Below are positions 25,001 through 28,000 of a stretch of 64,000 bases of DNA, in pieces. This DNA is from Hormiphora californensis (taxonomy: Eukaryota; Animalia; Ctenophora): assembly GCA_020137815.1 (NCBI GenBank), contig CM035360.1, positions 3,472,001 to 3,536,000 on the forward strand. Reading direction: 5' to 3'. Positions within the stretch are counted from its first letter, which is position 1. The number at the start of each line of letters is the position of its first letter. Both the position numbers and the translations under genes were made by a program. The notes under the pieces are model-generated. The model worked only from the letters and a program-made list of their open reading frames with translations. It made no database searches and was not told the DNA's origin.

Positions 25001-28000
25001 AGGTGAAGGTCGTAGAAGGAATATCCTTGGTCGCCTCCTCAGCTATACACCTGGTTGGGTCACTGAAGACTCCCACATATTGGGACTGAAGAATGTTGGA
25101 TTTCTCAAGGGGGTCATCAGTTACAGTACCATCCGCTCTCAAGAGAGGTGCTACATTGGACTTGGTTTTCCGGTGCTTGTTTACAAAGGACCAGAAGAAC
25201 CGGGGATTAGACTTGATAGTTCTGATTGCTTTCCTCTCCTTGCCTTCCAGGAGTCCAGTAAGATGTGATTTGATCTTAGCAGCCGTGTTTTCCACCTTCC
25301 GCTCGAGTTTCTCAATGTAGGATTGGCGTGAGAGATTTTGCTTTGCTAGTTTTATCCTCTGGTTAAGCTTTTTCTGTCTCCTTTTCAGCCTTCGTAAGTA
25401 AGGATCTTTCTTTTTAGAGGTACTGAAGACCTTCCGTTTACTATGTTTTTCGAAAACCTTCAAGACAGTTTCTATGAGACAATTTACGTAGGCATACCCG
25501 TCGTCATCTGGATCGCAGGATGAGAGAAGATTATCCCAGTCAATGTGGCTTAGCTCCTCATTGGCAGCATCAAAGTCCGCATTGTGATAGTCCAAGGCCT
25601 TGAAGCTCATTCCAGGCCGTACCCGGTCGTAAGCATTAGACTGATTGAGTCCTATTCCGAGAATACATGACACCAACGCATGATCAGACATCTGAGTTGC
25701 TGAGACATCCGTGTCAAGCACATAATCGATCCTATTAGTGAGAACAATGTCCAGCAGATTTCGGCCTCTAGTAGGTTCCGTTACCACTTGGGAAAGAAAG
25801 TTTCTCTCAGCAAAGTCAACCAAGGCATTGCCTTGATCCGCTGAAAGAGTAGACCAGTTTACTTGGGGCATATTGAAATCGCCAAGTATGAACACATCTG
25901 GTGGGCTATCTCCACAGGAGTGACGTTTTATAAACTCCTCCAAAGTCTCCAGAACATGGTGAGCAGGCGCTGTGGGGGCTCTGTACACTGATGCTATGAT
26001 GGAGTTTGATTTAGGAACATGAACTGCTACTAGACTGTTACAGTCGTCTGAGTAGGTTATTTGGTCGGACGGGGATATTGAGCAGTGAAGGTATAAAGCA
26101 CATCCACCCCCAACCCTACCTTCCCGATCGCTGCGGATGATAGAATATCCAGGAATGTTAACCTGGGCATCTGTGAATTCCGCCCGCCACCACGTTTCCG
26201 TGATGGCTGCAGCCATGACAGGGACACCTGAGTTACATATGGTGTCCCTCAAGTTCTCCAGTTTGTACCTTGCCTCACTGTTTGCCGACGGATTAAGACT
26301 GCGGGCATTGAGTAGCAACAGTTTAGACAGTCTACTGGGAACTATGGACCTATCTGGAGTTAGTACCTCCCCCTCTGCTGATGAGGGCTGAAGGTGTAAC
26401 CTGTTCCTGCCGGCAGTTGAGCCGGTTGGGAATGTTGGGAGTAGAACTGGTCTGGTTCTGGCTCTGGACGGTTCCTCATCTCCGTTCTCACTATCCCGGC
26501 TATTGTGTCCCTCAGCCGGTCGAGGACTGCCTCTAAAAAAGCAGGATCTGGTCCAGGCCTACGATTCTGAGACTGAGGCTGGGACCATTGTACTCCACTC
26601 GACACCCTCGCCCTATTGGATTCATTAGACCAAGCTCCTGATTCCGGTGCTTGGCTTGGACCTTGAGCTGATGGGATTCTGTCACGGCGGTTCCTCTCGT
26701 TGCCAGTCCCTTCTACAGGCCTAATCCTCCGGGTGTCCTTCAGGTGCTGTTTGGTACAGCTCTGTTTGTAACACGCATGCCGTAACTCGGAATTCTTGCA
26801 TAGTGGAGGGTGGAAAAGGATACATTCAGTGTTCTGGCATCCAACGCTCCTCATAGATCCATAGTTACAAAACTTTTTGCACAGTGTAGGGTGAGATTTG
26901 GGACAAGATCTGCCACTAACTAGCTTCGTCCCATCTCTCCCGTGTCTGCACCTCCTTTGCAAATAAAACCTACACACTTCGTTTCCTGGAACACCCCTCT
27001 CTCCCTGTTCCGCTGGGTCCGGTAGGTCCTCTCGTTCCTCTGCAGTTCTACTGATGTGCCTTCCCAGGATCTGCTCTCGGTTTGAACTACGTCTGGTCGA
27101 GTTATGACTAGGATCTGGACCACCGTCAGGTAGATGGCTAGTAAACCTTTCCAGAGTTTGTTTACCGAGGCAAGGGGAGCACACCCAAATTCGGCTTTTG
27201 ATAGCAGTGCTGCTGGCCTCTTCTCGTATCTTTGCACAGTTGTGCAGACCGCCACCACAGATGAAGCACCGAGCAGGGGGATTTTCATTTCTCTTCACGG
27301 AATACTTTTCGGTACACTCGCTGCATGTTTGGGGACCAAATCCCTCTATCCGCATGATGATCCAGTCAGCCAGGGTTGTTACTGAATGGTATTTCTGCAC
27401 TCCAGACGCCACACATCTAACCTCTTGGCCAAGGAAGATAGCAGTTGCCTCCAGATTACTAGCTGGGATAGCCTCCAGTTTGCTGAGGTTTTCCTCATAG
27501 TCCAGAGAAGGGTCATAAACTTCAATAACCTCCTTAACCGGTGTTCTGGCATCCTCTTTCAGCTCAGAGAGTACAGCAGCAAAGACGGCTGGATCTGTGT
27601 CATTAGCATGGTCCATTGCCATACTAGACACTACAGTGGAATATTTGAAAACGCACGGGCGCGCGCCTCAAATTAATTTGTTTAAAGTAGTGTTGAAAAG
27701 TTTGAAACTAATTGGCGATAACGTCATAAATCACATAATTATGGCTAATTAGTGAACCGGGGGTGGTAGAGACCTGTGGGATGGTACTTTGGACTTTTTA
27801 TAGAGTCCCTAATCATATCAGCAAGTCAAATTTAAAATTCCAGACCCAACTTCCCACAACCGACCCTACTATGTCACTCTTGTTCCCCCTGTCTACCGAA
27901 AGTGAGTTGTAGTCCGAATTTGTGAGTTTAGAGGGCGGACAAAAAGTCGAATTTCGACATTTTTAGCGGACAGAAACTCACCTTGGCCCCCACAACTCGA

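Follow-up and report, generated by a model that had tools for sequence, protein, structure and literature searches.

The intact LINE retrotransposon that we call LINE-A, in the genome of a comb jelly, Hormiphora californensis, begins with a copy of the host's trans-spliced leader (SL), and its genomic head probably stems from an RNA that was SL-trans-spliced and reverse transcribed to near its cap, and this head is likely renewed in later rounds from host read-through transcription. The window, that is, the whole stretch of 64,000 nucleotides that was analyzed (contig CM035360.1, positions 3,472,001 to 3,536,000), also contains a second, unrelated intact element, LINE-B, headed by the same leader, and SL heads are a general trait of the LINE families in this group of animals. 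We hold it very likely that trans-splicing supplied the SL ahead of target-primed reverse transcription, which then copied the template nearly to the cap, and likely that SL acquisition recurs rather than having occurred once per lineage. The head is traced to spliced RNA because it is identical to the SL, stops exactly at the exon end, belongs to a clean insertion into a MITE, and is found on unrelated families. LINE-A and its surroundings comprise the following features.

20371..28754, minus strand: GT-AG intron of a TTC39-like host gene, 8384 nt, with LINE-A in sense; profile positions are colinear on both sides
27708..27871, unstranded: outer part of the right MITE arm (upstream flank of LINE-A), 98% complementary to 22435-22598
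27667..27709, minus strand: 43-nt copy of the SL exon at the 5′ end of LINE-A, sharing its first 2 nt (AG) with the target site
27623..27666, minus strand: LINE-A 5′ UTR, 44 nt, with a GC-rich start, then a tract that leans to pyrimidines and two acceptor-like TAGs, which end at 27631 and 27624
26360..27622, minus strand: LINE-A ORF1, 420 aa, with Cys-rich PHD-like and CCCH-like motifs seen by eye and weak library matches
23346..26558, minus strand: LINE-A ORF2 frame, 1070 open codons, apurinic endonuclease-type (APE) domain and RT, overlapping ORF1 in the -1 frame, with its first Met codon at 26216
23215..23345, minus strand: LINE-A 3′ UTR, ending in a 10-nt tandem repeat of ~1.7 copies, with no poly(A)
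22435..23214, unstranded: remainder of the palindromic MITE; its left arm is the empty-site sequence, with TAG at 22596-22598

An earlier note on this DNA had described the order of 43-mer (27709-27667, minus strand), 44-nt UTR and ORF1 ATG (27622), and this order is confirmed in the sequence. The note had taken the 43-mer for the trans-spliced leader of Pleurobrachia/Hormiphora mRNAs; the H. californensis leader given in the available text of PMC8527503 is 44 nt long, and its nt 2-44 match the 43-mer at 43/43 positions. The same identity is obtained from 23 mRNA-like contigs headed by the SL and from an SL RNA gene in which a GT donor follows the exon (L022, below), which makes the host a ctenophore that bears the pleurobrachiid SL. 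None of 100 dinucleotide shuffles contained two SL matches (mean 0.00). According to the same text, the leader is present on 56% of Hormiphora Iso-Seq reads and in ~718 genomic copies, with 491 leader copies in the Mnemiopsis genome, and no classification of the genomic copies is given there (PMC8527503). The 43-mer is, as had been proposed, not itself part of an SL RNA gene: no GT donor follows the SL copies in the window, which continue with GCGC (LINE-A) and TTTG (LINE-B), and nothing in the window matches the SL intron found in L022 or 5S rRNA.

The insertion site is a palindromic MITE, whose arms could be verified at 22596-22893/22917-23214 (99%) and 22435-22598/27708-27871 (98%). LINE-A interrupts the right arm and ends near 23215, while the intact left arm represents the empty site and, as the note had claimed, lacks the SL. 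Joints that skip the whole of LINE-A (23211 to 27708) are present in DNA sequencing runs X3 and X6, and none of the contigs listed from the sequencing runs bridges the MITE/SL junction of the LINE-A locus. The proposal that the 43-mer came in with the LINE holds for 41 nt, whereas the first 2 nt may be target derived. TAG occurs at both junctions (27710-27708 and 23214-23212) and only once in the empty site, so the first two bases of the 43-mer are unassignable; the TAG at the LINE-A junctions is a 3-nt duplication or microhomology. Further long palindromic MITE-like elements, some of them related to each other, lie at 4261-4519, 34494-34736, 39735-40932, 53222-53446, and 61738-62683.

LINE-A is an APE-type LINE with two ORFs (RVT_1, E 5e-28; Exo_endo_phos_2, E 1e-10), and its ORF2 relatives among the matches include Mnemiopsis and Bolinopsis proteins and no named reference element. 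We tentatively take it to be CR1-like from its C-terminal motifs. CR1 elements have a 3′ end of short tandem repeats rather than poly(A), a trait that the LINE-A 3′ end fits, with its 10-nt unit and no poly(A). The PHD in ORF1 is a Cys pattern recognized by eye, the library match being FYVE_2 at a subthreshold E of 0.015, and the CCCH-like motif has zf-CCCH clusters at 0.81 as a lead; PHD in ORF1 is described for the L2 lineage as well in the available text of PMC4120745. The first Met of ORF2 falls inside the endonuclease domain.

The second SL copy in the window, absent from the earlier note, opens an element that runs to the window edge.

3692..3733, minus strand: perfect copy of 42 nt of the SL, forming the 5′ end of LINE-B
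3552..3691, minus strand: LINE-B 5′ UTR, 140 nt, with a conserved TTTTAG just before the ATG; 95% identical to that of locus L007
2313..3551, minus strand: LINE-B ORF1, 412 aa, with C-terminal CCHC-like knuckles
1..2430, minus strand: LINE-B ORF2 frame with APE and RT, open to the window edge

The ORF2 of LINE-B is 25% identical to that of LINE-A. Its CCHC-like knuckles were recognized by eye (zf-CCHC_6, E 0.032, a weak match), and its motifs together with the ORF1 type would tentatively place LINE-B in the L2 lineage. The TTTTAG ending of its UTR recurs in L003, L008, and L034, and behind the SL the first 43/43 nt of its UTR are identical to those of L007. A 5′-truncated LINE-B-like copy with an open C-terminal frame and an (ATT)n tail lies at 5183-6260 on the plus strand; it lacks the SL, as expected for a truncation.

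A scan of metagenome contigs for an exact 29-mer of the SL gave 35 matches in 34 loci, which may derive from several species, whereas the same 29-mer had 0 matches in the viral contig and genome contig collections and ORF1 queries found no relatives in the viral contig collection. LINEs with a changed SL or none are invisible to such a scan, so that no fraction of SL-bearing LINEs can be obtained from it and the elements in the window are the only unselected cases. In 23/34 loci, the contig terminates at the SL and an unbroken ORF follows, as in an mRNA, and 20 of these 23 carry host Pfam families, with G-alpha, innexin, RPL21, and calreticulin among them. One locus, L022, is an SL RNA gene, with the SL followed by GTAAG in a 778-nt tandem unit together with 5S rRNA (the 5S was found twice); the SL RNA itself had no match to an Rfam model. 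The base that precedes the SL exon in L022 is C, and the first G of the printed leader is therefore probably cap derived, in which case the 43-mer would be the whole exon. Reverse transcription can copy the cap.

Besides the mRNA-like loci and the SL gene, there are 12 SL heads, 2 in the window and 10 from the scan. Nine of the 12 can be recognized from the homology of their ORF1 and ORF2 as the 5′ ends of LINEs (the 2 in the window and 7 scan loci), divided between two lineages with 25% ORF2 identity. Six scan loci are LINE-B relatives (ORF1 42-90% identical) and one, L020, is a LINE-A relative (ORF1 34% identical), and each of these seven carries the start of ORF2. The other three, L016, L031, and L032, have ORF1-like frames behind the SL that a Pfam search left unclassified and no RT in the available sequence; the L032 protein matches only unnamed ctenophore clusters in the Atlas, and the locus is ~1.1 kb long and ends in (AAT)n. 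They are possibly nonautonomous, ORF1-only retroelements, and recognizable host retrogenes were not found among the 10 scan loci. In the UTRs of L032, L016, L031, and L020, an upstream ORF of 1-4 codons precedes a GC-rich motif that is similar among these loci.

We also observe in-frame slippery heptamers in the ORF1/ORF2 overlap of both window elements (2376-2382 and 26534-26540, minus strand) and of L003, L007, L008, L015, L021, L034, and L020. The heptamer is A AAA AAC/T, 67 nt before the ORF1 stop, in 6/7 LINE-B-type elements (55 nt in L021), and T TTT TTA/C in LINE-A and L020. The heptamers, lying where ORF2 overlaps ORF1 in the -1 frame, suggest that -1 ribosomal frameshifting might yield an ORF1-ORF2 fusion.

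Each of the 12 heads terminates precisely where the SL exon does, and none runs into the SL intron. At the other end, they start at SL nt 1, 2, 4, 3, 2, 1, 2, 2, 9, 3, 6, and 3, i.e., within nt 1-4 in 10/12 (P = 7e-5 if starts were uniform over nt 1-15; L031 has a single flank base), with 1-8 nt missing in 10/12. Of the nine flanks of testable length, none shares a match of more than 9-12 nt with another flank or with the SL gene unit. The prediction that family members start with the SL against unrelated flanks is thus borne out, since L007 shares the UTR and SL of LINE-B and differs in its flank, and the junction contigs agree.

As to the source of the LINE-A transcript, the flanking exons of the host gene (28807-28755 and 20370-20258) join via GT-AG in one open frame; the TTC39-like profile was built from 13 of 67 protein matches and gives weak single-exon scores, and protein searches for a clean ctenophore TTC39 returned a fragmentary model only. 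Since LINE-A lies in sense within this intron, transcription of the host pre-mRNA would include it. At 12700-39300 on the minus strand, the TTC39-like gene, an M16 peptidase gene, and a PUA-domain (MCT-1-like) gene stand in close succession, in an operon-like layout, and a pyrroline-5-carboxylate reductase gene occupies ~8270-10400 on the plus strand.

These observations can be accommodated in a cycle in which a LINE would insert into a host transcription unit, as LINE-A did into the TTC39-like intron, and read-through pre-mRNA would supply its transcript. Trans-splicing at the terminal AG of the genomic SL would cut the LINE RNA out and re-cap it with a fresh SL, use of a downstream AG would instead give daughters with a shorter UTR, and the SL-headed RNA would serve as the template on which target-primed reverse transcription runs almost to the cap. 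Whether the copies are indeed promoterless, transcribed from upstream host DNA and re-capped at the terminal AG of the SL, with downstream AGs producing shorter-UTR daughters, is in our judgment evenly balanced. As an acceptor, the SL terminus is GAG with a pyrimidine fraction of 0.47, compared with YAG at 11/11 host acceptors picked from the window (0.67-0.93), and given this atypical acceptor, resplicing at the SL end is not a given. A further point against the resplicing cycle is that the long UTR persists, though better-looking acceptors lie inside it. Such acceptor-like sequences recur: five LINE-B-type elements end their UTR in TTTTAG-G-ATG, three other heads open behind the SL with TTTCAG or TTTTAG, and the sister families of LINE-A, seen as loose ends, keep a pyrimidine-leaning tract and a TAG ~8-10 nt before the ATG.

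The sequencing runs contain a joint of the kind that the cycle would produce. In X5 and X6, which represent one second sample, DNA contigs join the SL end to position 27630, right after CTGTAG and 36 nt downstream; the two sides of the joint overlap by 2 nt, and the shorter one has 27 letters. This is the product that would be expected of trans-splicing at an internal acceptor followed by integration, although a small deletion is possible given the short side and the overlap; a cis GC-AG intron was rejected as the cause of the 36-nt skip, as the 5′ side has no donor-like sequence. SL/UTR junction contigs are present in two samples. In a sister family of LINE-A (27642-27677; X3, X5, and X6), the head consists of an SL remnant with an internal deletion and of extra upstream letters, with a loose end behind 27677; it may be an SL-derived head that persists unrefreshed, a master copy, or a single fixed locus. 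A DNA contig of X3 (27679-27709) shows a partial SL (31 nt), one base, and then a new SL start, perhaps reflecting a template jump at the 5′ end. In RNA runs X20 and X8, no listed piece crosses the SL/LINE-A junction or ORF1, an absence of cover that is not evidence of silence, and in RNA run X7, only the 3′ half of LINE-A is covered, at a depth of <5, with no SL/LINE-A junction listed.

Among the alternatives, the one that fares best is that the head is inherited, with the SL captured once per lineage by trans-splicing and now copied as part of the element, transcription beginning at or near SL nt 1 from an initiator and an internal promoter in the SL/UTR, and downstream AGs serving only for occasional trans-splicing for translation. 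We consider this unlikely, while noting that several observations are in its favor: the atypical GAG acceptor, the persistence of the long UTR, the conservation of UTR starts across families and sister families, and the SL-remnant head of the sister family. Both heads that keep SL nt 1 are, moreover, preceded by TT, creating a TTAGTT that is initiator-like by the initiator consensus, and promoter use of SL relics has been proposed in dinoflagellates (available text of PMC5585692). Against it, the SL is unchanged across families whose UTRs are only 41-79% alike and across lineages with the low ORF2 identity given above, the loss of 1-8 nt in 10/12 copies would erode an inherited head, and the AG-directed alternative joint exists in DNA. 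Of the SL bases outside the forced search pattern (14 per head), 142/168 match contiguously, and the UTRs of LINE-B relatives are 41-95% alike. Constancy of the SL alongside diverging UTRs, in a set where most copies are shortened, favors renewal, as an inherited head should drift and erode. When the 50 nt that follow the SL were tested for relics of older, decayed SLs, 1/12 heads stood out (LINE-A; P = 0.007, uncorrected), which was rejected given 12 tests.

It is distinctly improbable that rare promoter-bearing masters keep a promoter and outron, such that their spliced RNAs yield mostly dead-end SL-headed daughters and their unspliced RNAs regenerate masters. This would be the ordinary fate of retrocopies (available text of PMC12014239), and the sister family, with its variant head, may represent a master of this kind. 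Among the 18 loose ends listed of 25 (32 of 936 pieces listed), no non-SL head was found at the UTR start; the other 7 loose ends leave some room for masters, as do contig ends at 27668 in X5 and X6, although the latter fit a variant at 27637. One contig of X3 is unbroken from ORF1 to 10 nt into the SL, passing through the SL/UTR junction, and by depth, a weak measure, the SL-type heads add up to about as much (787.5 + 234.7) as LINE-A and its sister family together (483.7 + 507.7).

We give very little weight to a template switch of the reverse transcriptase from LINE RNA to SL RNA or to the leader of another mRNA. U6/L1 chimeras are a precedent for template switching, and the X3 contig with the double SL start suggests that jumps on SL-bearing RNA occur, but a switch would not account for junctions placed exactly at the SL exon end in 12/12 heads and at the same UTR base in LINE-B and L007, for an ORF1 that is never cut, or for an SL intron that is never included. 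Least credible of all is insertion beside a preexisting SL gene or orphan SL, as in NeSL/CRE/SLACS, or an assembly artifact, for which the ~718 SL copies of the Hormiphora genome (available text of PMC8527503) and the unbridged MITE/SL junction can be cited, against an empty site without SL, flanks that match the SL gene unit over 12 nt at best, an endonuclease of APE rather than RLE type, and SL/UTR junction contigs from two samples.

If trans-splicing renews the heads, LINEs with an SL head may need no promoter of their own. We put forward, tentatively and at somewhat less than an even chance, that at least two deep ctenophore LINE lineages lack their own promoters and have a trans-splicing-dependent life cycle, and that genomic leader copies are largely the heads of full-length LINEs. 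Internal promoters, ribozymes, and fixed targets are known ways in which LINEs regenerate a 5′ end and become expressed where they land. A standing 5′ end that is the SL of the host would be a further answer to this problem, across unrelated families of one animal group. The data suggest that many genomic leader copies in Hormiphora are LINE 5′ ends, which is a candidate explanation for the 718 + 491 unclassified leader copies in two ctenophore genomes. There are also practical consequences, as an SL head tags every full-length LINE copy and Iso-Seq leaders map to LINE heads, which calls for caution. In addition, same-strand nested units in introns were flagged as needing a special mechanism (available text of PMC8527503), and an SL-headed LINE in a host intron provides a direct test of their release by trans-splicing.

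We found no published report of genomic LINEs beginning with an SL, and a prior mention is possible, as Repbase and some supplements lay outside the search; the available texts of PMC7986045, PMC12460157, PMC4233971, and PMC3229502 contain nothing on SL-headed LINEs. The closest parallel is the SL-relic retrogenes of dinoflagellates (available texts of PMC5585692 and PMC12014239), which are likewise genomic copies headed by a trans-spliced leader through reverse transcription of mature RNA, and for which resplicing at the AG and promoter use of the relic have been proposed. There, however, the cargo consists of host genes and the relics are cut at an internal AG and stacked, whereas in ctenophores the cargo consists of autonomous LINEs and the SL is single and nearly whole. 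In Hydra, the SL is present on ~30% of the Iso-Seq reads from TEs, which makes TE RNAs substrates of trans-splicing there, but the available text of PMC12220107 concerns the RNA level only and does not describe genomic elements that start with the SL. NeSL-1, CRE1/2, SLACS, and CZAR are non-LTR retrotransposons linked to the SL as well and are thought to be cotranscribed with their target; the distinction that the earlier note drew from these elements is upheld, as they are single-ORF elements with a C-terminal restriction-like endonuclease (RLE) in SL genes (available text of PMC3636483), while LINE-A and LINE-B have two ORFs and an N-terminal APE and are dispersed. LINE-A in particular does not lie in an SL gene, its flank being the MITE, and none of the nine flanks tested has a real match to the SL gene unit. 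Finally, the CR1 and L2 lineages of the Jockey superfamily (available text of PMC4120745) share with our elements two ORFs, APE and RT, and, judging from motifs recognized by eye, an ORF1 that would be PHD-like (LINE-A) or CCHC-like (LINE-B), the clade being tentatively assigned here from motifs; they differ in having an element-specific promoter UTR where the ctenophore LINEs have the host SL as their 5′ end.
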